Assembly (NCBI GenBank): GCA_947085205.1
Contig: CAMTVO010000034.1
Span: 1 to 44,088, forward strand
DNA length: 44,088 nucleotides
From: an uncultured Nitrospiraceae bacterium
Lineage (GTDB): Bacteria > Nitrospirota > Thermodesulfovibrionia > Thermodesulfovibrionales > Dissulfurispiraceae
Direction: 5' to 3'
Shown here: piece by piece, positions 4,807 through 24,270 of the stretch
Numbering within the stretch: the stretch's first letter is position 1
How the letters are laid out: the number at the start of each line of letters is the position of its first letter
Program-made: the position numbers and the translations under genes
Notes under the pieces: generated by a model
The model's database searches: none
Told to the model about the DNA's origin: nothing
What the model saw: only the letters and a program-made list of their open reading frames with translations

Positions 4807-4849
4807 GCCGGGATAGCACAGTGGTAGTGCAGCTGATTCGTAATTAGCA
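4807..4849 (+). repeat. attL: 5' half of tRNA-Thr (direct repeat of 23964-24006)
   Basis: 4807-4844 is identical to 23964-24001 (38 bp), followed by one mismatch and 4 more matching bases. There is no T-arm or 3' acceptor strand. Confidence 0.95.
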
Positions 4850-5042
4850 AAATTTAAAACCCCGCAACCCTGCAAATCCAGTATTTTCAAGCCTTCGCAA
4901 GGAATAAGATATGTCTAAAAATATGTTAGTATGTTGTTAGTAAGTCATAATTACATTACAATTTTATGACACCGACCTTGCTATATCCAATTCAAGAGAC
5001 CAAGCCTATAAAAACCATCGAAAAAATCCATGTCAAAAAACA

Positions 5043-5154
5043 GTGTTGCATTTTTAACACCGTGTCATATTTTTCAACACTATAACTCATTGTTTTTTAT
5101 AGACATTTCAACAGCGTGGTATTTTAAACACAGGTGTGTGTCAAAAATTATACA
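5043..5154. promoter_or_regulatory. Cluster of TGT-N10/11-ACA palindromes (candidate enhancer-binding-protein sites)
   Basis: TGT-N10-ACA at 5044-5059 and 5139-5154, TGT-N11-ACA at 5063-5079, CGT-N10-ACA at 5115-5130. They lie ~115-230 bp upstream of a -24/-12 motif. Confidence 0.55.
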
Positions 5155-5269
5155 TATTTTAGATAACCTATATATTACCACATCTTTTCATAAAAAATCA
5201 AGCATAGAAAAACATAGGTTTTTCAATGACTTACAAGAGCGATAAAAATATGCGTGGATATTGACAGAT

Positions 5270-5285
5270 TGGCATGGGTTTTGCT
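5270..5285 (+). promoter_or_regulatory. Sigma-54 (-24/-12) promoter
   Basis: TGGCAtgggttTTGCT has exact GG-N10-GC spacing. An IHF-like TTTCAAtgacTTA lies at 5221-5233. Confidence 0.65.
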
Positions 5286-5693
5286 AATATATTTATATCG
5301 CCTTTGGCGAGAATATCAAAATAAGTAGTAAAAGGGGGCAGAAAGAGAGAAAGGCGGAAAAAATAGAGTATGCCGCCCAGGCTGATTGAGAGCGATAGGG
5401 ACGAGGGTGCTGGTGACACCCGCAGCGCTCCGTAAAGTCGGAGTTCACCACCCAAGGTTGTGACAGGGCACACAGTACTCATACAGACCCAAAAAAAAAC
5501 TGTATGATAGCAGGCGCAAAAGGGCGAGGCGCCAGCGAAATAAGCCCAAATCAAAAAAGTTCAAATCAAAGGCACACAGGACATCCTGAGTGCACCTAAA
5601 AAGTCATAGCGCACACCGCGCGGAAAAATCAAAAACACGGAGAAGTAAAGTAGTGCAGTAGCCTTTCACCTTTCATGCCTCGAGAGAGGAAAC

Positions 5694-6254
5694 ATGAAAG
5701 CAACAGCAGCAGACACCAGGATCGATGACACTAGGATCGACGTAGACGATTTTTTCGTAAAAAACTACAACAGCCTTGCAAGATATTGCCATGCACATTG
5801 GAACGGGTCGGGTCAGGATGTATTGCACGGGGCGTGGGAAAAAGCACGTAAGAGGTATCAGGACATCAATTTCGACCTGTTCACTGACCTTGCGCTTGAG
5901 GCCTCAAGGGAAAAGGCATACTGGTATCCAGGCCGGGACGGGATGATGGTTATCGTCCCACGCACAGAGACCACGCGGAAACGGCTTGCAACACACTTCG
6001 CAGCAGGCGATGCAGCAGCGAAAGACTACAGCGTCACGGATGAGATGACAACGAGAGAGAGGAAAAAGTGGATAAAAAAAATAACAAGCCTCAAAACAAC
6101 AGGTATGACAAACGCGGAAATAATTGCAGCGCTCCAAACCTCGGGACTGAGACGCAGAGCGCAGCTAAAGGCAGAGGCAGAAAAAGAAGAAAAAGAAAAC
6201 CTGAACCTCTTTTCTGAAACTGAAAATGCATATATATCAGAGGAGGTGGAATAA
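5694..6254 (+). CDS. Hypothetical protein with possible ECF sigma-factor-like regions
   Basis: RBS GAGAGGA. FFVKNYNSLARYC..SGQDVLHGAWEKA resembles sigma region 2, and MTTRERK...GMTNAEIIAAL resembles region 4. Similarity was judged by eye only. Confidence 0.45.
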   Translation: MKATAADTRIDDTRIDVDDFFVKNYNSLARYCHAHWNGSGQDVLHGAWEKARKRYQDINFDLFTDLALEASREKAYWYPGRDGMMVIVPRTETTRKRLATHFAAGDAAAKDYSVTDEMTTRERKKWIKKITSLKTTGMTNAEIIAALQTSGLRRRAQLKAEAEKEEKENLNLFSETENAYISEEVE

Positions 6255-7258
6255 TGTCAGGTAACAACACATACGCAAGGGGCGGGAACACCGCCCCTCA
6301 GGCTATACAACAGCAGGCAGAGGACGCGCTAAAGAAAATAGAAAAAACACGGGCAGAAATGCAGACGCTCTTTCATGCATACTACTCTGGTATATTACAT
6401 TTTCCTTTCCTGTTCGACCAGCTCATATATCGCAATACAATCAATATCCTTGACGGCCCGGGCAGCGCAGGCAAGTCCACGCTTGCCTTGCAGCTTGCAC
6501 TTGCCACGATTTTCCAGCAGCCATTCTTGTTGCCTTGCTTTTCTCACAGAAGGGAAGAAATAGGGGTTGATATATCGAATGTGATATATGTGACCAATGA
6601 AAACGAGAACCCCAAGGAGATAATGGTTTCACGATTAGCAAGCATGGCGCAAGCAATGAATGTAGACTGGGAAGACATAAATAAACATTTCTCAATATTT
6701 TACACCGAAAATTGCCTGACGGAAAAGCTTTTTGGGACTATCACGCCTACTGCTGCATACACCACGCTGCAGAGGGCAATCCAAAAATACCAGCCGGACC
6801 TTGTAATTCTGGACAATCTATCAAACCTTGCCGGAATAGAGGAAAACTCAAACGCAGAGGTTAACACATTCTATTCCTATCTGCTGAAACTCAAGACAAC
6901 GATACTGATACTGCACCACCACGCTAAAAGCGACATAACGAACGGCGCCGGGGAGACCACGCCACGCGGGGCAATCGCGATAAGGGAAAACGCACGCTGC
7001 AGGCTAGTATTGAAGAAAGACGTATTAGCAATAGAAAAAGCCAATTTTTCTCAATACGACCAGCACTATATACCACTTGCAAGGAGAGACGGCGCATTTT
7101 TTGCTGCAGTGCCGGAACCGCTTACATCGGATGATTTGAAAGAAATTGACATTTCAGACGAAACCAAAAATAACGGCAATGGCAATGGCAATGAAAAGAA
7201 AACCAGCAAGAAAAAAAGAAAGGAGGACTTATATGTCGGAGAATTTGAAGTGCTATAA
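6254..7258 (+). CDS. RepA-type (AAA_25, RSF1010 RepA-like SF4) helicase
   Basis: Walker A GPGSAGKST, Walker B PDLVILDNL, ENSN, ILILHH.K and RGA.AI...AR motifs. RBS AGGAGG. Confidence 0.8.
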   Translation: MSGNNTYARGGNTAPQAIQQQAEDALKKIEKTRAEMQTLFHAYYSGILHFPFLFDQLIYRNTINILDGPGSAGKSTLALQLALATIFQQPFLLPCFSHRREEIGVDISNVIYVTNENENPKEIMVSRLASMAQAMNVDWEDINKHFSIFYTENCLTEKLFGTITPTAAYTTLQRAIQKYQPDLVILDNLSNLAGIEENSNAEVNTFYSYLLKLKTTILILHHHAKSDITNGAGETTPRGAIAIRENARCRLVLKKDVLAIEKANFSQYDQHYIPLARRDGAFFAAVPEPLTSDDLKEIDISDETKNNGNGNGNEKKTSKKKRKEDLYVGEFEVL

Positions 7259-7979
7259 TGACGTAGAAATATACCGAAGATTTCTCAAATATCCTTTCGG
7301 GCTGCCAAAGAGAAAAGGCATATCTCATTATGTCAAGCACATACTGAACAACGGACGAATTGAGTATAAGGCACCTGATCCAATCGGAACAGAGGACACA
7401 GAAGTGCTATACACACTATTTACCTTAATCCAACAAGGCAAGACGATGATTACATTGTCCAACACCGAAAAAATACCGGTGACGTGCGTGGAAACCACCG
7501 TACAGGATATCGCTAAGGAACTCAACACTCACAATTACCAGCGCGTGCTGGATAGCCTCAGAAGACTGAAAGGACTGTCAATGCACTGCTACTATGGAAA
7601 GAAAAAAGAAGTCCACATCAATATCATATATCGCATTGAGTATTTCCGCGACACCGGCGGGATAAGAATACTGATAGCAGAGGAAATATACCGTGCCCTA
7701 ATGAACAAGACGCTCACAATCTCATATGACACATATATTGACCTGTCACCCACGGCCAAAAATCTGTATACATATCTTACTACCAACTCAGGGGACACGT
7801 TCAAGGAAGATACTATGATTGAGAGGGCAGTAATACTTGCCTCAAGAAAATGCGATGCACAAGTGAAACTCCGTGAGGCAGTAGACGATCTGAAAAATAA
7901 TGGCATAATACGGGATTATTCCAGACGGAAAAAAGATGGCACATGGTATATCACTATCGACAGGAAGAGGCAGGAGTAA
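7233..7979 (+). CDS. Putative plasmid replication initiator (RepC/TrfA-like winged helix)
   Basis: ATG at 7233 follows AGGAGG. The gene overlaps the helicase and is followed directly by iterons. The basic protein has DIAKEL..NYQRVLDSLRRL and LSPTAKNLY segments typical of Rep winged-helix domains. Confidence 0.6.
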   Translation: MSENLKCYNDVEIYRRFLKYPFGLPKRKGISHYVKHILNNGRIEYKAPDPIGTEDTEVLYTLFTLIQQGKTMITLSNTEKIPVTCVETTVQDIAKELNTHNYQRVLDSLRRLKGLSMHCYYGKKKEVHINIIYRIEYFRDTGGIRILIAEEIYRALMNKTLTISYDTYIDLSPTAKNLYTYLTTNSGDTFKEDTMIERAVILASRKCDAQVKLREAVDDLKNNGIIRDYSRRKKDGTWYITIDRKRQE

Positions 7980-8003
7980 CCCTGTCTCTTTTCATCCGTG
8001 TTT

Positions 8004-8160
8004 TTCCCCCGTGGTCGTAAAATGCACCCGCCAAAATCCCCGCAAAGCATTGATATTTATTGTTTTTCTGTCATTCAGTCGATTACCCCCTACTTTCCCC
8101 CGTGGTCGTAAAAAACCTTCCCCCGTGGTCGTAAAATGCCCCTCAAAAAATCCCCGCAAA
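8004..8160 (+). repeat. Iterons / candidate oriV
   Basis: TTCCCCCGTGGTCGTAAAA (19 bp) is exact at 8004, 8095 and 8118. Copies 1 and 3 extend to a 43-bp imperfect repeat ending AAAATCCCCGCAAA. Confidence 0.8.
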
Positions 8161-8212: not shown

Positions 8213-8320
8213 CTCTCTCCCATAGAGGGAGAGAGAGAGAAAGCGATTTTTTTCTGAAGAAAAATCGCTTTCTCTCTCGTAAGACATGCATGTGAAGGGC
8301 ATCGAACCCTTCACATGCAT
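8213..8320. repeat. Three adjacent inverted repeats
   Basis: 9-bp stem at 8213-8235, perfect 19-bp arms at 8233-8251/8260-8278, and perfect 14-bp arms at 8286-8299/8307-8320. Confidence 0.9.
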
Positions 8321-8741
8321 TAATGACCGGAAAACATATGTATCGCAGAAAAACATATGCTCTCTAGAATACCTTTGTTTTCAACAATGAAGTGATTTTT
8401 TTTAAACAGATAAACGCTGTAAAAAAAAACAAAGGTTTGCCTAGTATTCCCGGAATATATACCTTTTTTTTTTAAAAAACAATCGCTTTCTAGTATACCT
8501 ACCTCATAAAAAATATAAAAAGACTTCCCATTAAAGAAAGAACAGACAAAAGGCAAAGACAAAGGCAGGAAAACAGAAAAGCGTATGTATTACTTACATC
8601 CCCCTATCTTTCCTTTTTGGGCGCAGTTTTTTGGAAAGCTTAATGCATATATATAGTGAGATGACGTAAGAACATGCACAAAGGGAGATGGAGAATGCAG
8701 CGATATAAGAATGTTCAAATAAGCAAATAAAGGGGAAATAT

Positions 8742-11700
8742 ATGGTAAGCATTACGAATGTTAGCAGTGGGCAGGCGTCGACCTATTACCAGCGCGACAA
8801 CTATTACACACGTGCCGATGGACAATGGCAGGGCGCGGGCGCCTCGGCATTAGGACTATCCGGGGCGATCCAAAAAGATGATTTTGAAAACCTCATACAT
8901 GGCCGGGACCCGCAGGGTGACCGGCTTATAGCCGGCGGCGGCGAAAACCACGAACACCGCGCAGGCGTGGATCTCACTTTTAGCGCGCCGAAATCGGTAT
9001 CGGTGCTGCATGAAGTTTCAGGAGACCAGCGGATACTGGACGCACACAACCGGGCGGTGGAGAGGACACTACAATACGTGGAAGAACATTATACTCAGGC
9101 ACGGCAGACGCAGGACGGCGTAACTGAACGCGTCGATACCGGCAATATGGTCATCGCAAAATTTACCCACTATGTCAGCCGGGAGCTTGACATGCAGATA
9201 CATACGCACGGTGTAGCAATGAACATGACACAGCGAGAGGACGGTCAATGGCGGGCATTATCGAACGAGGAATTATATAACAACAAAATGCACATCGGGC
9301 AGATATACAGGAACGAATTAGCGGTAGAACTGAAAGAAATTAACTACGCGATTAAGACCGACAGTAGAGGTTTTTTTGAAATCCAGGGCATAGACCAGAA
9401 AGTGCTTGACGAGTTTTCCAGACGCAGCGAACAGATACAGTCAGCAATGGAAGACCTCAAAAAACAGTATCCAGACGCCAGCGAAAGCAAGATCAAGGAA
9501 ATGGCATGTCTCGACAGCCGCGTGGCCAAGAAAGATGTAAACATGGACGATGTAAGACAAACGTGGCAGGAAAGGCTTGAAAAACTTGGATATACCAAAG
9601 AACAGATACAGGCATCCGTCCAAAAGGCAGCGGAAGAAATGAGGGCAATTGAGAGGGGTCAAGGGCATGAGAACAACCCCGAAAAGACAGCAGGCGCAGG
9701 AGTTGCAGCGGCAGGCAGAATAATTACAGAACAGGAAAGCGTGTTTTCACGTAAAGACCTTCAGGATACTGCAATGAAGATGTCGATTGGTGATGCACGC
9801 ATAGACGACATCGAAAGGGCGATAGAGAGGGCGGAGAGAAACGGAGACCTCATAAGATTGGATGAGGGCAAATATACCACGCATGAGATGATACGGATTG
9901 AGAATGACATCGTGGAGAAAGTAAGGGACGGACACGGCAAGGCAGAGGCACTGGACGCAGAGAAAGTGCAGGCAGGTATACAGGAATACGAGAAAGAAAA
10001 AGGCTTTTACTTATCCGAGAACCAGAAAAACGCAATATCTCATATCCTCACCAGCAAGGACAGCGTAATAGGCATACAGGGCGATGCAGGGACAGGAAAA
10101 ACCACAGCATTGCAGGTAATGAGAGAGATAGCATCCAGGCATGGGTATGAAGTCAAGGGATATGCATACACAGGCAAGGCAGCGGAAGAGATAGAGAAAG
10201 CAAGCGGTATCCAGTCGCGGACATTACACTCATTCCTTGGAGAAAAAACAGAGGCAACAGCAGGAACAAAGGAGATATGGGTAGTGGACGAGGCCTCAAT
10301 GATGGGCAGCAGGCAGATGCACGGCCTGCTGGAGCGGGCGGAGGCAGCAGGGGCAAAAGTGGCAATGGTGGGGGATACCAAGCAATTGCAATCCATCGAG
10401 GCCGGCCGGATGTTTCAGAAGCTCCAGGAGACCGGCGACATGAAGACAGTGAGAATGTCCGAAGTCCAGAGGCAAAAAACAGAAGATTATAGAGATATAG
10501 TAAAAGACATATCCGAAAAGCGATTTGAAAAAGCGATGGAAAAACTTGAAAACACAGGAAAGATACATGAGATAGCAGACAGGCAGCAGAGGATTGACGC
10601 CATCGTGAAAGACTACACGGACAGCAAGAAAGACACAATCATAGTCACAGCACTGAACAAGGACAGGAATGAGATTAACGACCGCATCCATTCTGAACTA
10701 ATGAGACAGGGTAGGATAGGACAGCAGGAATATGAGTTTAACGTCAGAGAAAGCAAAAACTTGTCACCGATTGAAAAGCATTTTGGACAGAATTATGAGA
10801 AAGGCGACATAGTAATTGCGAACCATGCAGGCATCATGGGCAGGGCAGGAACAGAGGGAAAAGTAACCAGAGTAGACCATCAGAACCACAGAATTGAGGT
10901 TGAGACCAGAGGGAAAAATAGAGAGAGTGTCAAACATGAGATAGACCTGAAAGAACACGGACAGAACCTTGCAGTATACCGGGAAAAGCAGCAGTCATTT
11001 TCACAGGGAGAAAAGGTTGTCTTTCAGAAAAATGACCGCAGTCTTGGAGTGAAAAACGGGCAGACAGGAACGATTGAAAGTATAGATAAGGACGGTAGGG
11101 CAACCGTGAAAATGCACGATGGCCAGGAGAAGAAAATCAACCTTTCCACACAATACAATTACATCGACAGGGGCTATGCAGTTACATCATACAAGAGCCA
11201 GGGACAGACAGCAGACCGGGTGATTTTCCATTCAGTAGCTACCGAAAAATCAGAGGGCAGAGGGACGAATTATAACGAGGCTTATGTCGCCGCTACCCGA
11301 GGCAAGCACGACCTCAAAATTTACACGAACGACAAACAGAAATTCACCGAACAAATGAAAGTAGAACAGCAGAAAACCAGCACTTTGGATTATGAGAAAA
11401 CAGCAGAATGGAGAAGTGAGAAAGCAGAAAAACAGACAGGCAGAAAAACAGAAAAACACGAAAGCGCGAGGTCAGAAAAACACGAAAGCAGAAAAGCAGA
11501 AAAGCGGGAATATGAAGACAGAAAAGCGCAAAAACAGCATGGCACAGGAGTGACAAAATTACCTGACAGGGCACCAGGGAAACAGAGCTGGTGGGATAGA
11601 GCGCTCCCCGGCGGAAAAATTGAAATATCTCCACTGGTCGGAACAATAAAAGAATCTCAAAAGGGTATTTCATTTTATACAACGCGGGAGGGTTTTTTTG

Positions 11701-12275
11701 GGGACAAAGTAAAAAAGGGAAAATACATATCAGGGGAAAAGAAAGGAACTCAATTTAGGAATGAATACCGTGTTGACCAGGGGCTTTTTGGGAAAAAGCT
11801 TAAAGGCACATACGTGGAAAAACGTAAGGACGGAACTATAGTGGTAAGCAAGTATGAATATCGCCAAAAAGACACTTTATCATCTGTGTTTTTCGGGCGC
11901 GGGAATATCAAGCCAAAAATGGAAATGACTAAGTCCGAAACATACATTATTAGACCGGATGAGGCGCGGAAGTGGGCAGGTAAGGATGTGCAGAAATTGG
12001 AAAAAACCCTGAAAGCGAAATACGCGGAAAAAATAATTAAGAAAGCCGAAAAAATGGGAAAAGGGCAATACAAGGAAAGCGCAAAAACGAAAGAGCCAAC
12101 CACGCTGAAAAGCTCAGGAGTGAATGAGAAAGTTTACCGACACCACGAGACTGAAAACGTAAAATCCCGCGGAGCGGAAAGAGAGAAAACAGCAGGAAGT
12201 GAAAGCGCAAAATCACAAGCACAGGAAACCTCAAAATCGCAAGGGCAAAATCAAAACCAAGGTCGTGGCAGGTAG
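8742..12275 (+). CDS. trwC: MOBF conjugative relaxase-helicase (TrwC/TraI family)
   Basis: YY-x4-YY (YYQRDNYY), DLTFSAPKSVS, H..SR..D.QIHTH, EFSRRS, Walker A GDAGTGKT, DEASM and YAVTSYKSQGQT. Confidence 0.96.
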   Translation: MVSITNVSSGQASTYYQRDNYYTRADGQWQGAGASALGLSGAIQKDDFENLIHGRDPQGDRLIAGGGENHEHRAGVDLTFSAPKSVSVLHEVSGDQRILDAHNRAVERTLQYVEEHYTQARQTQDGVTERVDTGNMVIAKFTHYVSRELDMQIHTHGVAMNMTQREDGQWRALSNEELYNNKMHIGQIYRNELAVELKEINYAIKTDSRGFFEIQGIDQKVLDEFSRRSEQIQSAMEDLKKQYPDASESKIKEMACLDSRVAKKDVNMDDVRQTWQERLEKLGYTKEQIQASVQKAAEEMRAIERGQGHENNPEKTAGAGVAAAGRIITEQESVFSRKDLQDTAMKMSIGDARIDDIERAIERAERNGDLIRLDEGKYTTHEMIRIENDIVEKVRDGHGKAEALDAEKVQAGIQEYEKEKGFYLSENQKNAISHILTSKDSVIGIQGDAGTGKTTALQVMREIASRHGYEVKGYAYTGKAAEEIEKASGIQSRTLHSFLGEKTEATAGTKEIWVVDEASMMGSRQMHGLLERAEAAGAKVAMVGDTKQLQSIEAGRMFQKLQETGDMKTVRMSEVQRQKTEDYRDIVKDISEKRFEKAMEKLENTGKIHEIADRQQRIDAIVKDYTDSKKDTIIVTALNKDRNEINDRIHSELMRQGRIGQQEYEFNVRESKNLSPIEKHFGQNYEKGDIVIANHAGIMGRAGTEGKVTRVDHQNHRIEVETRGKNRESVKHEIDLKEHGQNLAVYREKQQSFSQGEKVVFQKNDRSLGVKNGQTGTIESIDKDGRATVKMHDGQEKKINLSTQYNYIDRGYAVTSYKSQGQTADRVIFHSVATEKSEGRGTNYNEAYVAATRGKHDLKIYTNDKQKFTEQMKVEQQKTSTLDYEKTAEWRSEKAEKQTGRKTEKHESARSEKHESRKAEKREYEDRKAQKQHGTGVTKLPDRAPGKQSWWDRALPGGKIEISPLVGTIKESQKGISFYTTREGFFGDKVKKGKYISGEKKGTQFRNEYRVDQGLFGKKLKGTYVEKRKDGTIVVSKYEYRQKDTLSSVFFGRGNIKPKMEMTKSETYIIRPDEARKWAGKDVQKLEKTLKAKYAEKIIKKAEKMGKGQYKESAKTKEPTTLKSSGVNEKVYRHHETENVKSRGAEREKTAGSESAKSQAQETSKSQGQNQNQGRGR

Positions 12276-12527: not shown

Positions 12528-12709
12528 TGTTTTCTAAGGTTTTAAAAGGCTACCTTTTACCTATCTTTTTAGCCTCAAATCAAGAATTATCAATCTTTTG
12601 AGAGGTTACCACTGTTTTTATCCTCAAAGGATACCAAAGATACCATAGTGAAAAATGAAAATGCATATATATAAGAGAGTTAGATTTTACACTTAAGGAG
12701 GTAAGGAAA

Positions 12710-13084
12710 ATGGCAAGGCAGGTAAATCTGAAATTTAGGGAAAACGAATATGAGGAACTTGAGTTTATGGCGAGGTCGGCAGGGTTAAAAGTGCCTGCAT
12801 ACATCCGCCAAAAACTCAAAAGCGCACTCAAGGAAGAGGCCAGAGATGGTGCATTGGTAATCCGCATGATTGAGACAATGGAAAAACTCCAAAACCATCT
12901 TTACCTGACTGGTGGAAAGCAGGAAATGCAGGGTGACGGTGAGGTAAAAAAGCTTGCAATGTTTATGTCCAAAATGGCTAAAGAAATTTTTTCTCAGGTC
13001 ATCATAGACAAAGACAAAAGAAAAGCTTTTTACGAAAAGTTTACGGCGGAAGAGTTGGAGCTATTTGAGAGAGGGGGTGACTAA
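12710..13084 (+). CDS. Ribbon-helix-helix protein, probable relaxosome accessory factor (TrwA/MobC-like)
   Basis: QVNLKF-ENEYEELEFMARSAGL-VPAYIRQKL RHH pattern, RBS AAGGAGGT, and position next to the oriT candidate. Confidence 0.7.
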   Translation: MARQVNLKFRENEYEELEFMARSAGLKVPAYIRQKLKSALKEEARDGALVIRMIETMEKLQNHLYLTGGKQEMQGDGEVKKLAMFMSKMAKEIFSQVIIDKDKRKAFYEKFTAEELELFERGGD

Positions 13085-13887: not shown

Positions 13888-13941
13888 AAAAGCAAAATGC
13901 ATATATATGTTGTGATTTTAAGATTAAAGGGGGTGATAACA

Positions 13942-14250
13942 ATGAGCAAAGCAATAGCAGATGAAATCAGGGCAGAGGCAATAAAGCTGATTGAGTTTGA
14001 GTTTCAGAATAACTCGTCACACTTAAGAGAACGTGCTATTAAGTTATTCAAAATAGCATATCGGCTTGAACAGGCTTTAGCAAAGCCTAACATGAGCATG
14101 ACCATTAAAACCGAACACAGCGCACTAAAGCAGGAGATAATCGAAATGCGAAATCAGGGTAAATCATACAGGCAAATATCGAGGAAATTAGGAGTGCCAA
14201 CGTCAACGGTTTACAAAATTTTTAAGCGCTATGTATGCGAGAAAATTTAA
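13942..14250 (+). CDS. Small HTH protein
   Basis: ATG 13942 after GGGGGTG. C-terminal MRNQGKSYRQISRKLGVPTSTVYKIFK. Confidence 0.75.
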   Translation: MSKAIADEIRAEAIKLIEFEFQNNSSHLRERAIKLFKIAYRLEQALAKPNMSMTIKTEHSALKQEIIEMRNQGKSYRQISRKLGVPTSTVYKIFKRYVCEKI

Positions 14251-14686: not shown

Positions 14687-14748
14687 AAAATCAAAATGCA
14701 TATATATGTATGAGAACATTTCACATCAGAAAAGGGGGTGATGAAAAC

Positions 14749-15404: not shown

Positions 15405-17060
15405 ATGCAATATAAAGAGAATAGAGGGTATAAAGGTTTTGAGACGTGGTTTCACTCGATACAAATGGAAGCGAAGATGTATATATATACATTTCTTATC
15501 GTCTTGCTCTTACATCTTGCTATCCCGGTTCTTTACCTTTTCATTTTCAAATTTAACTTGGTGGAGATTTTGTTTTTTACGATTTCTAATTTTCGCTTTG
15601 ACGTGCTGCCGCGCGTGTTTAAAGTCATGATTAAATACGCGTGGATTATTTTCGTTCTTGCTACTCCAATATGGCTGCTATACCCTGCCATGCTCCGCAA
15701 GTGGAAAAGCAAGTCAAGCGAGATGATGAAAGACCAGCACTTACGAGGCAGCAAGCTGGTATCCGAGGATGAACTCAAAAAGCTCATGAAAAACGAACAA
15801 TCATCGTTGCAGCTTGGCAGAATACCATTACCCACGAGGGCGGAAACAAGGCATTTCCTCGTTACTGGGCGTCCGGGCACAGGAAAGACAACGCTCATGA
15901 ATTCTGTTATTTCCAAGCTCCGGGATAGAGGTGAAAAGTGTCTGATATACGATTTCAAGGGCGATTATTTATCGCACTTTTATCGTGCTGAGACTGATTA
16001 CATCTTCAATCCACTTGATACCCGCTCAATGCACTGGTGCTTGTTCGATGAGATACGGATGCACCCGGATATTGACAGCATTGCAACGTCCCTAATCCCG
16101 CCGGCGAACGACGACAAATTTTGGACAGATGCGGCGCGGGACGTATTTGCATCGATACTTCACTATTGCGTGAAAAGCGGAGAAACAACGAACGCGGACA
16201 TATGGAAATACGCTAGCTATGCAGAGTCGCCTATGCTTGAACTCATGCAGAACGCAGTAGAACAAGGCATAGAAGAGGCAAAAAGAGCAACGGGATACTT
16301 GCAGGGATATGAGAAAGGCTCAAAAGTGGCATCTGATGTTCTCTCTACTATGAGGCAATATACCAATGCTTTTTTCTACACGAGGCATTTAGGAAATGAT
16401 TTCTCAATCAAGCGGTGGTTAGAAGAAGATGGATCATCCTTTATTTTTCTCACAAATTACAGCAATCTACGGGACACGTTGAAACCGCTGCTATCCTTAT
16501 TCCTTGATACTGCTTTGAAACATCTCTTATCATTGCCTGAAAACTTGAACCGGCGCAGGTTTGTGATTATCGATGAGTTTGCGTCACTTCAACGGTTAAG
16601 CTCACTAGTTCAGGCGCTTGAGCAGGCACGCAGTAAAGGCGGGTCAATATGGATAGCCACGCAGGACGTGGGGCAAATCCAGAAGATATACTCCCCGGAA
16701 ACCACTAACACAATCGTGAACACGTCAAACACGCTGATATCCTTTGCACTGAACGATCCACTATCTTCTGATTTTCTCAGCAGGGCATTTGGTGAGCGTG
16801 AGATCCTCGAAACAGATGAGAGTATATCAATGGGTCCCGCAGACCAGCGCGACGGCCTGAACATCCAGCGGCGCAGGAAAACAGAAAAGCTGCTACTACC
16901 AAGCGAGTTTATCACCCTGCCCGATTTGAATTTTTACATCAAGATGCTTTCCTATCCCATTACACAAACCCGCGTGGACATAACCCGACTGGAAAAAAGG
17001 CAGGACAGCTTTGTGCTCAATCCGATTTTTCACCTAAAATCGGAAAACGAAAATGGATAA
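15405..17060 (+). CDS. trwB: Type IV coupling protein (TrwB/TraD family)
   Basis: Two N-terminal TM segments, HLRGS, Walker A GRPGTGKT, IYDFKGD, FNPLD.R, Walker B IIDEFASL and ARSKGG..IATQ. Confidence 0.93.
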   Translation: MQYKENRGYKGFETWFHSIQMEAKMYIYTFLIVLLLHLAIPVLYLFIFKFNLVEILFFTISNFRFDVLPRVFKVMIKYAWIIFVLATPIWLLYPAMLRKWKSKSSEMMKDQHLRGSKLVSEDELKKLMKNEQSSLQLGRIPLPTRAETRHFLVTGRPGTGKTTLMNSVISKLRDRGEKCLIYDFKGDYLSHFYRAETDYIFNPLDTRSMHWCLFDEIRMHPDIDSIATSLIPPANDDKFWTDAARDVFASILHYCVKSGETTNADIWKYASYAESPMLELMQNAVEQGIEEAKRATGYLQGYEKGSKVASDVLSTMRQYTNAFFYTRHLGNDFSIKRWLEEDGSSFIFLTNYSNLRDTLKPLLSLFLDTALKHLLSLPENLNRRRFVIIDEFASLQRLSSLVQALEQARSKGGSIWIATQDVGQIQKIYSPETTNTIVNTSNTLISFALNDPLSSDFLSRAFGEREILETDESISMGPADQRDGLNIQRRRKTEKLLLPSEFITLPDLNFYIKMLSYPITQTRVDITRLEKRQDSFVLNPIFHLKSENENG

Positions 17061-17085
17061 TGCATATATATGTAGGAGGTGCAAC

Positions 17086-17391
17086 ATGAAAGAAATAATA
17101 ATAATAAGGTTACTTAGCCTTGCACTTGCAGGTGCGGGGTTAGGATATGGGTTGAATGAGATTAACCAATTGCCACATAAGCAAGAAATTCCAGACTTCC
17201 AACAGGTAATTAAGCCTGTAGTATCTCAGATATCACAGGCAGTATCAGCAGCAGCAGCAGAGGAAAGGAAAACCCAATCAATACTGATAACTAAGTATAA
17301 GCCTGATGAATTTTATCAGGCACAAGCACGCGTTGATATATGTAGCTATTACATTGACATGTCCGACTGCCCAAAAGGAGGTGAAAACTAA
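17086..17391 (+). CDS. Hypothetical membrane-anchored/secreted protein
   Basis: AGGAGGT RBS before ATG 17086. Hydrophobic N-terminus. Confidence 0.65.
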   Translation: MKEIIIIRLLSLALAGAGLGYGLNEINQLPHKQEIPDFQQVIKPVVSQISQAVSAAAAEERKTQSILITKYKPDEFYQAQARVDICSYYIDMSDCPKGGEN

Positions 17392-17711
17392 TGTCAGGAT
17401 TGATGAAGATACTTGTCATTACCGCGCCGGTGCTTGCTTTGCTCTTATTTTATGTCATTACAAAGCAATCGCAAATGGACACTGAAATGAAAAAAGAGGA
17501 CGCAAGGTTTGAACGCGAGTGGGCAGAGTTTAATAAGGACTTTTCAACGTCAGGCGACCGGCAGAAATATGAACAGCGGGCTCAGCAGGCGGAGCAGGAG
17601 TTCCAAGAGCTGAAGAAAAAGGAAAAGGAGAAAGAAGAAAAGACCGAGCGGATTGAAAAGGAACTCGAGAAGGCAATAGAAGAACACGGCAAGGACGCCG
17701 GGAAAAAGTGA
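17391..17711 (+). CDS. Hypothetical N-terminal TM plus coiled-coil protein
   Basis: RBS AGGAGGT, TAATG overlap with the previous gene and an E/K-rich coil. Confidence 0.7.
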   Translation: MSGLMKILVITAPVLALLLFYVITKQSQMDTEMKKEDARFEREWAEFNKDFSTSGDRQKYEQRAQQAEQEFQELKKKEKEKEEKTERIEKELEKAIEEHGKDAGKK

Positions 17712-17813
17712 AAAAGCAAAATGCATATATATATTGTAGTACGGGGCAAATAAAATAAGGGGGCGGAAGGCGTCCTTGACGCCGGCCCTCTACAAATGCC
17801 CAAGGGGTGAAAA

Positions 17814-18221
17814 ATGAGACGCACAAAAGTAGTATCGCCTATCTTCATCAAGAAAGGCAAGGGAAATGACGGCAAGGTATTGGTCGTCATGTTGGTATTA
17901 ATCTTAATGGTTGCACTGTTTAGTATGGCTGCAACCGCAAAGGCAGCGACAGAGGCGCCAGTGGAAGATATAGTAGAGAATAAGGCAACGTGCACAGTGA
18001 CATATTTTACAGAAAAAGGTGGAAAATATATCACAAAAAAACATGCAGCGAATATCAACGAAATATTGACAGTACTACATCGCAACATTGCTGACGAGGT
18101 AACGACAAAGGACAGTAAGTGGGGAGAAATAGGGGTTGACTGCGACATCGACAGACCTGTCTATGATGAAATGGCAGGAAGAACGGTAAGGGGTTTTGCC
18201 TTTATTTTTTCTTTGAAGTAA
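17814..18221 (+). CDS. Hypothetical exported protein
   Basis: RBS GGGGTG. Hydrophobic segment followed by an AxA cleavage-like site. Confidence 0.65.
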   Translation: MRRTKVVSPIFIKKGKGNDGKVLVVMLVLILMVALFSMAATAKAATEAPVEDIVENKATCTVTYFTEKGGKYITKKHAANINEILTVLHRNIADEVTTKDSKWGEIGVDCDIDRPVYDEMAGRTVRGFAFIFSLK

Positions 18222-18274
18222 AATTTAACGGGGCGGTTTCCGCCCCTTAATATCAGAAAGGAGAAAGGGCGACC

Positions 18275-19465
18275 ATGAAAAGAGTAATTGCAAGTATTGT
18301 ATCATTTTTGGTAGTGATAATTACTACTAATACAGAGGCAGGCTATTGGAGCATTCACTGCGAGAATGCCTCATGTGTAGCCTCTCAGGGTGCGCTGAAA
18401 GTATACTGGATGGCAGCAGGAATAAATAATATATATCAGGGCAAACTTACCGGTGTAGAGGGAATACCTATCTCAATCGAAGACTATCAGGCGGTAGAGA
18501 AAAAGATTGAATCCACTATTGAAAAGACCATAACACGCAAGAAAGGATCAGACACCAATGTTAAGGCTGATGCTCCAGAGGGCACGGGCGGACCATCGGC
18601 AGGCAGAACAGACAGCAAAGAAAACCTATTTTCCAAAAAGCGTTCAATGTCACAGAGTAAGACAATGGGTAAGAAAGTCAATGTGGATTACACACTTGCC
18701 TTTGTCGAGTGGCTGGGAGACACAAGATTTATTTTAGATAAAAGCATTAAGCGATATTGGGTAGCAGCAGAAATGGCTTTAAATGCGTATAAAAACGGAA
18801 ACATAGAGGAATTAATAGAACAGTTTTTCATCGCAAGAAACGCTGAGGCAATAGAGGACGTGGCCGTGAACGCAAAGCTTACGGACGAAACTAAAGCATT
18901 GATAATGACTAAGTATATAGGGCTTACAAGATTTCCTTTAGCTCTACCAACAGTGAGATATGCACTCGCAAGCCAAGCGGTGTATAACATTAGTAATAAT
19001 ACGGAAGAGGCAGTGAAGGTATCCAATGAATATAAACAAGATATGGAGAATCTTTCGATGCTAATAAGACCAGGGCAGACAGCACTGAAATTGTATAAGT
19101 CCAACCCCGAGCTTGCTTTTCTTAAATGGTTAGCTGATAATCATCGTTTTGTGAAGAATATCAATGATATGCCTTTAGAGGACAAATATCTGGTGGCCAT
19201 TAGTGTTTTTAGGGAAATCAAAGCTGACCTTTTGGATGACGCAGATAAAAGCTTTTTTAAAGAAGAAAGGCAGGAATTCGAGGCAGCAATCAAGGCAAAG
19301 GATAAAAGCGTTCAGATTGTAACAGTCAAGGGCAGTCCAATCCCTGTAATTCCTGTAATTTCAATTGTGGCAGTATCAGCAGTGATAATCGGAGCGATAT
19401 ATATTGGAACCCGGGCTAACCGGAAAAAGAAAAATAACACGCAGGAGGTAATCAATGAGGGTTAA
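18275..19465 (+). CDS. Hypothetical protein with signal peptide and C-terminal TM anchor
   Basis: 396-aa ORF with an N-terminal signal, a C-terminal hydrophobic helix and a basic tail. Confidence 0.75.
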   Translation: MKRVIASIVSFLVVIITTNTEAGYWSIHCENASCVASQGALKVYWMAAGINNIYQGKLTGVEGIPISIEDYQAVEKKIESTIEKTITRKKGSDTNVKADAPEGTGGPSAGRTDSKENLFSKKRSMSQSKTMGKKVNVDYTLAFVEWLGDTRFILDKSIKRYWVAAEMALNAYKNGNIEELIEQFFIARNAEAIEDVAVNAKLTDETKALIMTKYIGLTRFPLALPTVRYALASQAVYNISNNTEEAVKVSNEYKQDMENLSMLIRPGQTALKLYKSNPELAFLKWLADNHRFVKNINDMPLEDKYLVAISVFREIKADLLDDADKSFFKEERQEFEAAIKAKDKSVQIVTVKGSPIPVIPVISIVAVSAVIIGAIYIGTRANRKKKNNTQEVINEG

Positions 19466-20111
19466 CAATATGTTAGTGTCGTGTGTGCTTTTTGTTTTTT
19501 TTGCGGCGGCGACTGCACACGCTATTGAGATTAGTGAAGACCTTAAAACAGCCCTGCTTAAAATGATAGAAAAAGCTACAAAAGTTGATGTGGTAATGGA
19601 TAGAGAGGATATAAGAAAAGAAGTATTACATTCAGCGCTTATAACTGCATCTATGCGTGTATCTGCTGATAGGTTATTAGATGAATACAGAGATGGAAAA
19701 TTAACATTTCTTGAAATTTTAATGACTCCTCCCTCAGGAGATGTTCAAATGCCCGTAGTTGAGAAAACTTTATGTTTTCTGTTTTTGAAAGACATAGCTC
19801 TACTACAGGGAGACAAAAATAAGGCTAAAAAATACGTAAACATGGCAGAAAAAAATGCACAGGACGGGATAAATTACTATTCTAAAATAGGGCAAAAAGG
19901 CAGTATTATAGCTATGTATAATCTGTATATGTATAACGAGATTTTAAAAGCATTTGCGCCTTCTTTTGCTGCTCCAATTGGACAGAAGGATATAGAAAAT
20001 GCTAAACGAATTATATCGGAATCGGATTATTTACGAGAGCGGAGCCTTGCTTTAGAGAATGCGATAACACAGTGGAATAAAAACATTTCAAAAATTCCTA
20101 AAAAACCGTAA
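19455..20111 (+). CDS. Hypothetical secreted helical protein
   Basis: RBS AGGAGGT. Signal peptide ending AHA. Confidence 0.7.
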   Translation: MRVNNMLVSCVLFVFFAAATAHAIEISEDLKTALLKMIEKATKVDVVMDREDIRKEVLHSALITASMRVSADRLLDEYRDGKLTFLEILMTPPSGDVQMPVVEKTLCFLFLKDIALLQGDKNKAKKYVNMAEKNAQDGINYYSKIGQKGSIIAMYNLYMYNEILKAFAPSFAAPIGQKDIENAKRIISESDYLRERSLALENAITQWNKNISKIPKKP

Positions 20112-20133
20112 TCAATCCACCTCTCAATCCCCA

Positions 20134-20166
20134 CAGGACGGGCGCTTAAGCCTGTCCTTTTTTTTC
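20134..20166 (+). terminator. Intrinsic terminator
   Basis: AGGACGGGC..GCCTGTCCT stem followed by a T-tract. Confidence 0.75.
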
Positions 20167-20198
20167 TTATAGGCAAAGAGCAAATGCATATATATCAC

Positions 20199-20768
20199 AT
20201 GCGCACGCTTGTGATAATATTTTTCCTGCTGATACCTATGACAGCGGAATGCACAACAATCATAATCCCCGGCAGTAATACCGGCGCCGAACAAATGGCA
20301 TCCTTGCAGGCGAATATCCCCGCAGCTATCGTCATATATCCTGTTACGATGATGCCGTTATCTGCCGCGGCAGAAAGCATAAAATCGCAATTAGACGCTC
20401 AAAAAATTGAAACCGTTGAAACCATAATCGGCTATTCATGGGGAGGGCTAATTGCTCGCGAATTATCCGGCCGATATCCTAAACTGCAAGTCAAGAAAAT
20501 AATCCAGATAGGCACGCCGAACGGCGGATATAAGCACGCTCCGTCATTCATTTTTCGCACCTTGCAAACAAGCGCTGATATATACATAATCGCCGGAGCG
20601 TCCAGTTCAAGAAAATGGTATCTAACGGGGTTAAACGACGGCACGGTAGACCTCGACTCGGTCCTGTCTATACCATCGAAAGAACACGTTATTTTTAATC
20701 TCAATCACGCCGAACTGGTCCGCGATATTGCCGTCATTCAAAAAATTATTCAGTGGATGAAAAAATAA
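20199..20768 (+). CDS. Small secreted alpha/beta hydrolase (lipase/esterase-like)
   Basis: GYSWGG nucleophile elbow, IGTPNGG, NDGTV (Asp) and LNH (His). Signal-like N-terminus. The start could be 20184 or 20199. Confidence 0.8.
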   Translation: MRTLVIIFFLLIPMTAECTTIIIPGSNTGAEQMASLQANIPAAIVIYPVTMMPLSAAAESIKSQLDAQKIETVETIIGYSWGGLIARELSGRYPKLQVKKIIQIGTPNGGYKHAPSFIFRTLQTSADIYIIAGASSSRKWYLTGLNDGTVDLDSVLSIPSKEHVIFNLNHAELVRDIAVIQKIIQWMKK

Positions 20769-20841: not shown

Positions 20842-20911
20842 TTTCAGTCCAGAAAAAAACGAAAAAGCAAAATGCATATATATGTATATCTTATTTCAAG
20901 GGGGTGTGTAA

Positions 20912-21163: not shown

Positions 21164-21477
21164 AAGCAATACCACTGTGCTTGATATCGCTATTTCTGTT
21201 CCTATCGTCTTGCTCTCCGCGCGTCAGCATAAACATTAGTCCTCCGCGACTAATTAATATAGCAAGCTGCGAGATGGTGGGCGCAAAAGAAGAATTAATC
21301 ATAGCTATTCTGGGCGCAGCAAAGCGGAAAGCGGAAAAGGACGGATATACAATCCGCACTTTCCCGGCAGGGAAGAAGACAGGCTGGAGAGAAATCACAA
21401 TAGTAAGTATGAACGACATAGTAGTGGACGCATATTGTGTTCCCACGCTATATGTATCACGAGGAGGTGAAAACTAA
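21160..21477 (+). CDS. Putative lipoprotein
   Basis: Signal peptide with lipobox LSSC. Confidence 0.65.
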   Translation: MKAIPLCLISLFLFLSSCSPRVSINISPPRLINIASCEMVGAKEELIIAILGAAKRKAEKDGYTIRTFPAGKKTGWREITIVSMNDIVVDAYCVPTLYVSRGGEN

Positions 21478-21770
21478 TGAGTAAACTTTTAACACCAGCA
21501 GAAGTGGCGGAAATGCTTAGTATAGCTCCTATCACGCTATATCAAATGGTGCACTATGGCCGCATACCCGCGGTGAAAATATCTGCGAGATGTCTGAGGT
21601 TCCGGGCAGAAGACATCCAGAAGTGGATCGCCGAGAAGACGCACGGGGTTAATCCACGCCCAATGGCACGGGTAAAAGGTGGCAAGCGTGGCAGGCCACG
21701 TAAGAACACTGCAGAAAAGGCGAGGGTGGACGCAATCGTAGAACAGGCAAGGCAGGATCATCATGCATAG
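21477..21770 (+). CDS. xis: Excisionase-type HTH (HTH_17/AlpA-like) with AT-hook
   Basis: LLTPAEVAEML.I...TLY....GRIPAVKI...LRF...DI..WI and KRGRPRK. Confidence 0.85.
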   Translation: MSKLLTPAEVAEMLSIAPITLYQMVHYGRIPAVKISARCLRFRAEDIQKWIAEKTHGVNPRPMARVKGGKRGRPRKNTAEKARVDAIVEQARQDHHA

Positions 21771-22805: not shown

Positions 22806-23882
22806 ATGGGACTCTATAAGAGAAAAAACACATACTGGATGAGTTTTTCCTACAAGGGCAGGCAATACCAGCGCAGCACAGGCACAACGGATAAGGCAAT
22901 TGCACAGCGCATACACGATGCCGTCCGTGGCAGGATAGCATTAGGGCAATGGATACCTGAAGAACAGGCTATTGAATATACCTTTGATGACCTTATGGAA
23001 AAATTCATGAAAGAACACGCGCCAAAGCGAGAACCCGCAACGCAGAGAATGTATGCCAATTCATTTAAAAATCTCAAGCAGTTTTTTCAGGGGATGCCTT
23101 TATCACGCATAACTCCAAAGGCCATTACTGAATACATGCACAAACGCCTTGACAGCGGTGTATCTATAGCTACAGCCAACAGGGACTTTGCTGCACTTTC
23201 TAAAGCCATGAACCTTGCATGGAAACGGTGGGAATGGTGCAAAGAAAACCCATGTATCAAAGTACAGAAAGAACCGGAAAACAACAAGGTTTTGAGGTGG
23301 CTATCTCAGGAAGAGGAAGACAGGCTCATGGCTGCTGCTAATGGATTGATTGACGGGCAGTTAACGGAGATATTAACCATCGCACTGTATACCGGGATGA
23401 GACAGGGAGAGATCCTTGATTTGAAATGGGAGAACATAGACCTCTTTAGAAAGACCATTCTAATACGGAAATCCAAGAACAAAGAACCACGAACCATTCC
23501 AATGAACCAGACAGTTAGCCGAATGCTGATATCCATGAGCAAGGTAATGAGTATGTCAGGATACGTGTTTACCACACAGGGCAGGAAGATGAAATTCAGA
23601 AACCTCATGAGGGCCTTTTATATCGCTCTGAAAAAGGCAAATATCGAGAAATTCCGTTTTCACGACCTCAGACATACCTTTGCGACCCGGCTTGTTCAGG
23701 CAGGCGTTGATTTGTATTCCGTAGCAAAACTTTTAGGCCATAAGGATATAAAAACCACACAGAGATATTCTCACCATTCAGTAGAGAGTGTCAGACAGTA
23801 CGTTACAGTGCTGGATAATTTTTCAGAAAAAAATGACGCTGAAAAAGAACCCCAAAAACTTGATTTTTCTGCCAATTTTTGA
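22806..23882 (+). CDS. int: Tyrosine recombinase (phage-type integrase)
   Basis: TGMRQGEI (R), SKN (K), FHDLRHT (HxxR) and LLGH..IKTTQRY (H, Y). N-terminal arm-binding beta domain. Adjacent to attR. Confidence 0.96.
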   Translation: MGLYKRKNTYWMSFSYKGRQYQRSTGTTDKAIAQRIHDAVRGRIALGQWIPEEQAIEYTFDDLMEKFMKEHAPKREPATQRMYANSFKNLKQFFQGMPLSRITPKAITEYMHKRLDSGVSIATANRDFAALSKAMNLAWKRWEWCKENPCIKVQKEPENNKVLRWLSQEEEDRLMAAANGLIDGQLTEILTIALYTGMRQGEILDLKWENIDLFRKTILIRKSKNKEPRTIPMNQTVSRMLISMSKVMSMSGYVFTTQGRKMKFRNLMRAFYIALKKANIEKFRFHDLRHTFATRLVQAGVDLYSVAKLLGHKDIKTTQRYSHHSVESVRQYVTVLDNFSEKNDAEKEPQKLDFSANF

Positions 23883-23913
23883 CCCTGTTTATGACAAATT
23901 TATGACACTGATA

Positions 23914-23922
23914 TGTTATAAT
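23914..23922 (+). promoter_or_regulatory. Element-borne extended -10 promoter upstream of the intact tRNA
   Basis: TGtTATAAT ending 41 bp before the tRNA. Confidence 0.6.
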
Positions 23923-23963
23923 ATACCTCACTCATTCCAAAAACCGTTACATATCAGTTACTT

Positions 23964-24035
23964 GCCGGGATAGCACAGTGGTAGTGCAGCTGATTCGTAA
24001 TCAGCAGGTCGAGGGTTCGAATCCCTTTCCCGGCT
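23964..24035 (+). tRNA. tRNA-Thr(CGT), contains attR
   Basis: Full cloverleaf: GCCGGGA/TCCCGGC acceptor, GCAC/GTGC D-stem, GCTGA-TTCGTAA-TCAGC anticodon arm and TTCGAAT T-loop. CCA is not encoded. Confidence 0.97.
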
Positions 24036-24254
24036 TTATAGGAGTTGCGCTTATTGCTCCCGGCAGAAGACATGAAGATATTTATTTGAGAACTAAGCGA
24101 TTAGACCGTCTTTAAAGTTTCCCGCTTAAAATCCCGATAACAAAATAGTCAATTTTATGACAGATAGGTTTAATTCAATGTCAATTTGCACGAAAATCAA
24201 AATCAATGTAAGAAAAATAAAATTATATTTCAATCGGTTATGTATCTTAAATGA

Positions 24255-24270
24255 TGGCATGGTTATTGCT
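24255..24270 (+). promoter_or_regulatory. Sigma-54 (-24/-12) promoter of the pse cluster
   Basis: TGGCAtggttaTTGCT with GG-N10-GC spacing, 50 bp before the pseB start. Confidence 0.7.

Follow-up and report, generated by a model that had tools for sequence, protein, structure and literature searches.

The window analysed here (the whole stretch of 44,088 nt, on contig C34 of a 1.89-Mb Nitrospirota genome) carries a 19.2-kb element that is bounded by a partial copy of a tRNA-Thr gene at 4807 and by the intact tRNA gene at 23964-24035. All genes of the element lie on the + strand and encode a 186-aa ORF product (P0001), AAA_25 helicase-like, Rep-like, relaxase, NikA-like and coupling proteins, an excisionase and an integrase. 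The integrase, att repeats and relaxase expected of an integrative mobilizable element are thus all present, together with a coupling protein. None of the 26 element ORFs, which include several membrane ORFs without a family, matched VirB proteins, and PF03135 (VirB4-type channel) had no match in the genome, in a search whose control was detected in just 1 of 14 genomes. Since no VirB protein was recognised, with this weak control, the element is read here as mobilizable, with a replicon of its own. Its features are as follows.

4807..4844, +, attL at the element's left end, 38 nt duplicated from the 5' part of tRNA-Thr(CGT)
5043..5080, +, tandem enhancer-like pair (5043-5060, GTGT-N10-ACAC, and 5062-5080), matching the host lpxC enhancer
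5083..5095, -, IHF-like site with one mismatch, just after the tandem pair as in lpxC promoters
5114..5155, +, second palindrome pair (5114-5131 and 5136/5138-5155)
5221..5233, +, IHF-like site with one mismatch to the consensus, 49 nt before the -24 element
5261-5290, +, overlapping sigma-70-type promoter, TTGACA-18-TG-N-TAATAT; rival or second input
5270-5285, +, sigma-54 -24/-12 site TGGCA-N6-TTGCT with exact spacing
5297..5693, +, predicted structured leader of ~400 nt; 5337-5355 can pair with 5661-5679
5694..6254, +, gene of the sigma-like protein P0001 (186 aa), first gene of the element
6225..6237, +, motif copy 1, ahead of the helicase and Rep genes and within the 3' end of the gene for P0001
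6254-7258, +, AAA_25 helicase-like gene
7179-7979, +, Rep-like gene
8001..8136, +, direct repeats following Rep, three of 22 nt each, likely origin iterons
8642..8654, +, motif copy 2, ahead of the relaxase gene
8742..12275, +, MOBF/TrwC relaxase-helicase gene
12660..12672, +, motif copy 3, ahead of the NikA-like gene
12710-13084, +, NikA-like gene
13896..13908, +, motif copy 4, ahead of a small HTH gene
13897-14250, +, small HTH gene with weak region-4-like matches
14695..14707, +, motif copy 5
15405..17060, +, TrwB/TraD-type coupling protein gene
17059..17071, +, motif copy 6
17720..17732, +, motif copy 7
20183..20195, +, motif copy 8
20871..20883, +, motif copy 9, preceding a run of overlapping genes, the excisionase gene among them
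21477..21770, +, excisionase-like HTH_17 gene, in that run
22806..23882, +, tyrosine integrase gene
23964..24035, +, intact tRNA-Thr(CGT) gene holding attR

The element has inserted into the 5' half of its tRNA gene, and tRNA-Thr(CGT) is the sole such tRNA found in the assembly; integration at this position means that the element provides the DNA upstream of the intact gene (4807-4844, 23900-23963), including a TATAAT. The attP/attB joint is absent from the contigs of four DNA runs, which, as contigs drop rare forms, is uninformative on excision. The same genome (G000) contains a sister element at tRNA-Ala (G000:C9:8500-26490), the first gene of which encodes a complete ECF-type sigma factor, P0028. 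The word A(A/T)TTTATGACA is found near both ends of both elements (4961 and 23897 in the window, 26335 and 8641 in C9), and these words are candidate integrase arm sites. Several exported or membrane ORFs without a family, located at 17053-20768, are common to both elements (a 396-aa ORF is 76% identical) and could represent a module for transfer or exclusion that went unrecognised. A candidate oriT region is marked at 8233-8320 by two perfect inverted repeats, which lie after the iterons and before the relaxase gene.

Direct family scans of P0001 gave no match in Pfam, NCBIfam, PHROGs or PDB sequences. The sole match of a word-indexed sequence search was P0001 itself, the ESM Atlas gave no usable match, and pattern scans found one locus in metagenomes and none in genome contigs or viral contigs. 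An exhaustive search with P0001 yielded 26 other matches, of which 25 were kept: P0024 (four short stretches) was left out of the 27 matches before alignment, leaving a profile of 26 homologues. This profile aligns with P0028 of the sister element (probability 95.3, E 2e-8), which itself scores over the TIGR02937 sigma70-ECF cut-off (46 vs. 42.9) and matches Pfam Sigma70_r4_2 at 3.5e-10; P0001 gives no match to TIGR02937. In a structural search with the AlphaFold model of P0001 (pLDDT 81, pTM 0.44), each of the six top-ranked chains (of 48,161) is a sigma or sigma-like region-2 domain, from RpoE, SigH, SigR, PhyR-SL and SigC among others, with rmsd of 2.8-4.3 over 62-78 residues and Z of 6.5-7.4, values that are middling and that, being below 8 between helical domains, may reflect a common arrangement. 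Foldseek comparison with the PDB and with viral models gave no match at E ≤ 0.001, with sigma factors at the head of both lists.

Residues ~10-90 of P0001 have the predicted fold of an ECF sigma region 2, and the C-terminal half is predicted to form a helical hairpin and a long helix. Region 4 was not detected in P0001 by Pfam, NCBIfam or whole-model fold search, in which the rows for the C-terminal half are generic helices. Region-4 matches are found in four family relatives (P0028 and three more), and the relatives form a series with full region 4 (these four proteins), a reduced HTH, a hairpin, or nothing in its place. The region-2 fold, the homology and this series support region 2 and indicate that region 4 appears to have been lost rather than to be degenerate. 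The first-pass annotation had compared the product to ECF regions 2 and 4, the latter degenerate, and had proposed checking this by profile and fold searches; its region 2 is borne out by the homology to P0028 and by the top-ranked structural matches, if not by a direct family match or a Foldseek match at the above threshold, and its degenerate region 4 is not. As judged from these comparisons and the model, P0001 is likely a region-2-only, ECF-derived sigma factor. In the helix that resembles the core-binding one it has G46, vs. E in 24 of 41 alignment rows, which, like the lack of a direct family-model match, speaks against an unqualified sigma assignment. No anti-sigma gene was found beside its gene, the next gene being that of the AAA_25 helicase-like protein.

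The P0001 family occurs in 18 of 390 genomes of the class, all within the host's order, and in 11 of 401 sampled genomes of the phylum, none of them outside that order. In the 20 family loci the gene lies beside xis, relaxase, coupling protein or integrase genes; it is usually the first gene, and the locus is often bounded by a tRNA. Nine of the 20 combine a divergent XRE-type repressor gene with a sigma-70-type promoter (eight repressor proteins were scanned, the ninth being identical to one of these). The family tree is rough, its bootstrap support not being settled.

The word AATGCATATATAT occurs in nine exact copies between 6225 and 20871, all on the + strand, and these are all the copies in the 1.89-Mb genome. 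Between attL and 5694 there is none within two mismatches, in agreement with the first-pass observation that the first gene lacks an upstream copy. GAAA lies 11-13 nt upstream of the GCAT core in eight of the nine copies, and a ribosome site and start codon follow eight of nine. Across the family, 14 of 20 loci have ribosome sites preceded by GCATATATA (with at most one mismatch) or by the variant TGCATTAWWWATA; the variant was chosen by eye from the same elements and recurs in two loci found later. Six loci, some of them partial, have no motif. The GCAT-AT-rich word switches strand with divergent genes (G214, G220), and relaxed motif sites number 21 vs. 8.0 expected. In several genomes the exact 11-mer is not confined to the element (G086, 3/14; G026, 2/7; G077, 1/4; G034, 0/5).

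Another 15 relaxase loci, which lack a family match, served as a negative control, and the motif is absent from 12 of them; several of the control loci run directly from an XRE repressor gene to xis or relaxase. Of the three with motif sites, one is cut by a contig end, one has a single site, and the third (G216, five sites) has, opposite an XRE repressor gene, a very divergent first gene whose product ends in QGVLF. The co-occurrence of homologues with repeated motifs, which the first-pass annotation had proposed as a check, is supported by these comparisons. In G216 a motif site also lies before the XRE repressor gene (L138:16751), which suggests negative feedback by the element sigma. The sister element contains seven GCATATATA sites, a 24-bp palindrome array before its sigma gene and a stand-alone duplicate of the P0028 region 4 (P0029); cross-activation between the two elements is possible.

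The region upstream of the P0001 gene agrees in most respects with its first description. The -24/-12 site has the exact spacing and is among 16 strict-form sigma-54 sites of the genome; the IHF-like site at 5221 has one mismatch to the consensus; and of the four palindromes, three are exact TGT-N10/11-ACA (5044, 5063, 5139) and the fourth has one mismatch (5114). IHF sites are expected near att sites too. Of 31,326 overlapping 120-nt windows of the genome, only 2 contain at least three such palindromes (for 4851-5300, shuffle P=0.016); at least three are likewise found at just 1 of 35 relaxed sigma-54 sites, against a background of 1 in 7,508 windows. With palindromes at -227 to -132 and the IHF-like site at -49, the placement fits, as a sequence match, the layout of a sigma-54 promoter, in which activator sites lie ~80-250 nt upstream with IHF bound in between. 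No sigma-54 activator was found in the element, as had been noted before; the host encodes rpoN and 16 full activator AAA domains, none of them on the window contig.

Missed in the first-pass annotation was a sigma-70-type promoter that overlaps the sigma-54 site, matches 10 of 12 positions, has a TG extension and predicts the same transcription start. One alternative, which we regard as unlikely, is that the element's sigma factor and its regulon are real and the gene is transcribed from this promoter, the sigma-54 site being incidental, or blocking when occupied. Such a reading draws on the promoter's sequence, on the dual role of the -12 box TGC, which also provides the TG extension, and on the relatives, most of which use sigma-70-type promoters (with the divergent XRE repressor in 9/20). 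It leaves unexplained the four lpxC-like palindromes and the presence of another host sigma-54 enhancer in a second element, both described below, and no repressor gene is present to silence so strong a promoter. The leader folds with a z of -3.8, its long-range stem closing just before the ribosome site, and neither an Rfam family nor a + strand terminator was found in it; the fold is consistent with a single transcript from ~5297, whichever sigma factor initiates it.

The palindromes were initially taken to be of the NifA type. This reading was not retained; a model derived from lpxC promoters of the host family was preferred, and the palindromes look like sites of the lpxC regulator instead. 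The pattern of palindromes plus a sigma-54 site gave one match each in 22 of 68 genomes of the host family, and the first 12 loci, as well as further ones that were read, all lie before lpxC. A conserved tandem sigma-54 enhancer is observed before lpxC in the host (G000:C62:6437-6530) and in 21 relatives. A matrix built from 11 relatives ranks the host lpxC locus first and the locus at 5043 next (43, 25, then 18 bits), with the four window sites as the top cluster; when scoring is limited to positions that played no part in the search, places 2, 3 and 4 of 541 go to window sites. In the alignment of the window with lpxC promoters, the tandem pair and the IHF-like word occur in the same order. 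Synteny did not pinpoint the lpxC activator, as an activator gene is nearby in just 2 of 19 lpxC loci.

A sigma-54 site lies upstream of the family gene in just 2 of 20 loci, namely in the window and in G026; the chance of one further strict site among 19 loci is P=0.077, so that by itself this could be coincidence. The sigma-54 gate is thus a local variant and not family-wide. The G026 element carries upstream of its sigma-54 site the same 12-mer as the 5221 IHF-like site, and a different tandem site, TGAC-N7-GTCA, that is found in 35 of 68 genomes; of 15 such loci read, 8 have a downstream sigma-54 site, three of these with confirmed pilin genes. In G000 this site is flanked by a pilin gene on one side and, on the other, by a kinase/activator pair, which we take to be PilS/PilR. 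A shared origin of the window and G026 promoter regions was considered and rejected, as the two do not align apart from the IHF word (score 33 against a shuffle mean of 29). Given this, and given that the two proteins are not sisters in the rough tree, the enhancers were likely acquired from hosts on two separate occasions. Chance occurrence of the gate is unlikely, because the palindromes match the host lpxC enhancer and a second element carries a pilin-type enhancer. The host sigma-54 gate of the original proposal accordingly keeps the backing of enhancer matches in two elements, with the qualifications that it is local and that a sigma-70 promoter overlaps it.

As the activator sites copy those of the lipid A gene lpxC, the timing of the element's activation is probably set by a host regulator. 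That the regulator of lpxC itself activates the 5270 promoter seems to us slightly short of an even chance. It is rather improbable that the sigma-54 promoter is real and answers to another host protein, such as a receiver-less flagellar activator, or that it drives the leader RNA alone. There are 16 candidate activators, site 5138 also resembles a perfect TGTCA-N6-TGACA over the start of the gene of a receiver-less flagellar activator (C14:94909), and the leader is long and structured; the tandem model favours the lpxC type over other activators, no + strand terminator was found in the leader, and host pilin promoters likewise have leaders of 140-300 nt. Downstream of the element, at 24147-24270, a host sigma-54 site precedes a pseB-like sugar operon, with GTCA-N6-TGAC 108 nt upstream that resembles the palindrome at the same flagellar activator gene.

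Taken together, the reading that we prefer is a cascade in which P0001 would direct the host polymerase to the nine GCATATATAT sites, its own gene being switched on at the sigma-54 promoter by an lpxC-type host activator; as a whole we consider it a little better than evenly poised. Its first step, somewhat more secure, is that a host activator with IHF would open the 5270 promoter, with transcription starting near 5297 and producing the 400-nt leader. Its second step, which we hold to be quite probable, is that P0001 would bind the core polymerase and read the motif as a -10-centred promoter, and so turn on the replication, mobilisation and excision genes together. With no motif before the sigma-like gene, the output would follow the host signal and not lock on. 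On at least two occasions a host enhancer would have taken the place of the family's usual switch, in which a divergent XRE repressor acts over a sigma-70 promoter: an enhancer of the lpxC type in the window element and of the pilin type in G026. Of the cascade as first proposed (host sigma-54 promoter, element-encoded ECF-like sigma, nine motif promoters), the sigma-like nature of the product and the co-occurrence with the motif find support, as does the sigma-54 gate as a local variant; region 4 and the NifA-type sites do not.

It appears improbable that P0001 is one half of a split sigma factor, as are Tn916 Sig7-8 and T4 gp55/gp33, with region 4 supplied by the small HTH protein. Split sigma factors are established (bioRxiv 10.64898/2026.10.01.756105), the ORF at 13897-14250 has weak region-4-type matches (Sigma70_r4_2 at 2.7e-5, TIGR02937 at 3e-5), and the C9 element has a stand-alone region-4 ORF. 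The best matches of the ORF are, however, generic HTH families, and it is not conserved in relatives; its gene lies behind a motif copy, so that a split sigma factor would depend on itself. Moreover, the complete element of G232, which carries motif sites and encodes a same-clade protein that lacks region 4, gave no region-4 match in the 22 further ORFs that were scanned. Equally little probability is given to the motif being an operator, or being read by host sigma-70 with an element activator, and to the region-2 remnant being a decoy or anti-sigma: the motif does hold a TATATAT that resembles a housekeeping -10, P0001 lacks region 4 and the conserved acidic residue, and sigma-like anti-anti-sigma domains exist (3t0y ranks 5th structurally), but GCAT is invariant upstream of the AT run, the same word accompanies full-length and truncated family members and is absent from most relaxase loci without a family gene, and in G086 a motif copy lies upstream of the family gene itself, as in autoregulated sigma factors.

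The cascade so preferred may have a further layer at the C-terminus of the sigma-like proteins. The pattern Qxx[LM][FW], set after viewing the alignment and counted over rows that are not independent, is found within the last 25 residues of 23 of 45 family proteins vs. 2 of 1530 host ORFs, and proteins with intact region 4 also carry this motif or a loose form of it. In P0001 the corresponding column holds NLNLF (169-173), which is off-consensus, with N169 where 30 of 41 alignment rows have Q. The pattern corresponds to the beta-clamp consensus QL[SD]LF, which MuC of phage Mu uses to activate transcription (PMC12867686). By analogy, whether such a motif ties the activity of the family to replicating element DNA is evenly balanced, and for P0001 itself such a tie is doubtful. 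Clamp coupling as a replacement of region 4 is plausible, given the element's replicon. Combining these layers, one may picture a three-layer switch, from the sigma-54 enhancer of a housekeeping regulon to a region-4-less sigma factor and on to the host beta clamp, by which transfer and excision would be tied to the state of the envelope. An enhancer from lipid A (window) or type IV pilin (another genus) regulation would replace the phage-type repressor, and the genes would fire on replicating element DNA, with the clamp used as T4 gp55 uses its own. We think it unlikely that this full picture is correct.

The family offers a natural series, with region 4 of a sigma factor being lost as the promoter word stays, and hence a test bed for minimal -10-centred recognition. 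It also suggests that elements can swap an SOS-style repressor for a host sigma-54 enhancer, so that mobility would respond to signals from the envelope or pilus. Should the clamp motif prove functional, the clamp-coupled transcription of T4 and Mu would extend to integrated conjugative-type elements, with a sigma factor that uses the host clamp. Being small and having a 13-nt site that the host genome proper lacks, such a sigma factor is a candidate orthogonal expression part.

The comparisons with known systems that follow are drawn from the available portions of the cited reports. In Desulfovibrio, lpxC is the target of a sigma-54 activator, the response regulator DVU2934/Dde_3003, which binds a GTGT...ACAC palindrome upstream of the gene (PMC3333781, PMC4045070); these portions describe no mobile-element target for it, and the Desulfovibrio site is GTGT-N7-ACAC, vs. 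N10 in the window (PMC3333781). The lpxC enhancer of the host family would extend this regulation to Nitrospirota. T4 gp55 is likewise a region-2 sigma factor with a C-terminal clamp-binding motif and -10-only promoters, but it is a phage protein that requires gp33 and the phage clamp gp45 (PMC7892883); homology between P0001 and gp55 was not found (Foldseek E 2.8). MuC binds the host beta clamp for transcription through QL[SD]LF-like motifs; in contrast to the element family, whose link to the clamp comes from the motif alone, it is a phage protein and not a sigma factor (PMC12867686). Our literature search, which mostly did not cover subscription papers, found neither a sigma-54-gated element sigma factor nor a clamp-binding sigma factor in a conjugative element, and it gave no precedent for the series of region-4 loss, for the clamp-type tail, for host sigma-54 enhancers being borrowed repeatedly or for the three-layer switch.

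SetCD/AcaCD-type activators resemble the proposed cascade in that dispersed sites allow one element-encoded factor to activate the excision and transfer genes, but they are FlhCD-like activators that work with sigma-70 and have no sigma-54 enhancer in the portion of the source available, which also gives ICEclc as a case of host sigma input through its RpoS dependence (PMC5812530). SigN of pBS32 is an element-encoded, weakly ECF-like sigma factor with a private consensus, an element-only regulon and a host-regulator gate; it differs in being plasmid-borne, in the repression of its sigma-A promoter by LexA, and in its bipartite -35/-10 promoters and positive feedback (PMC6751061). In the case of Tn916, the element's own Sig7-8 positively controls the integrated element and is needed for excision, and its first expression comes from an upstream promoter; it is a split sigma factor with one main promoter and autoactivation (bioRxiv 10.64898/2026.10.01.756105), whereas in the window element a lone region-2 protein is paired with nine dispersed sites, the input is of the sigma-54 type, and this copy lacks an autoregulatory site. 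On the accounts available of SigN and Sig7-8, an element-encoded sigma factor with a private regulon is thus already precedented.
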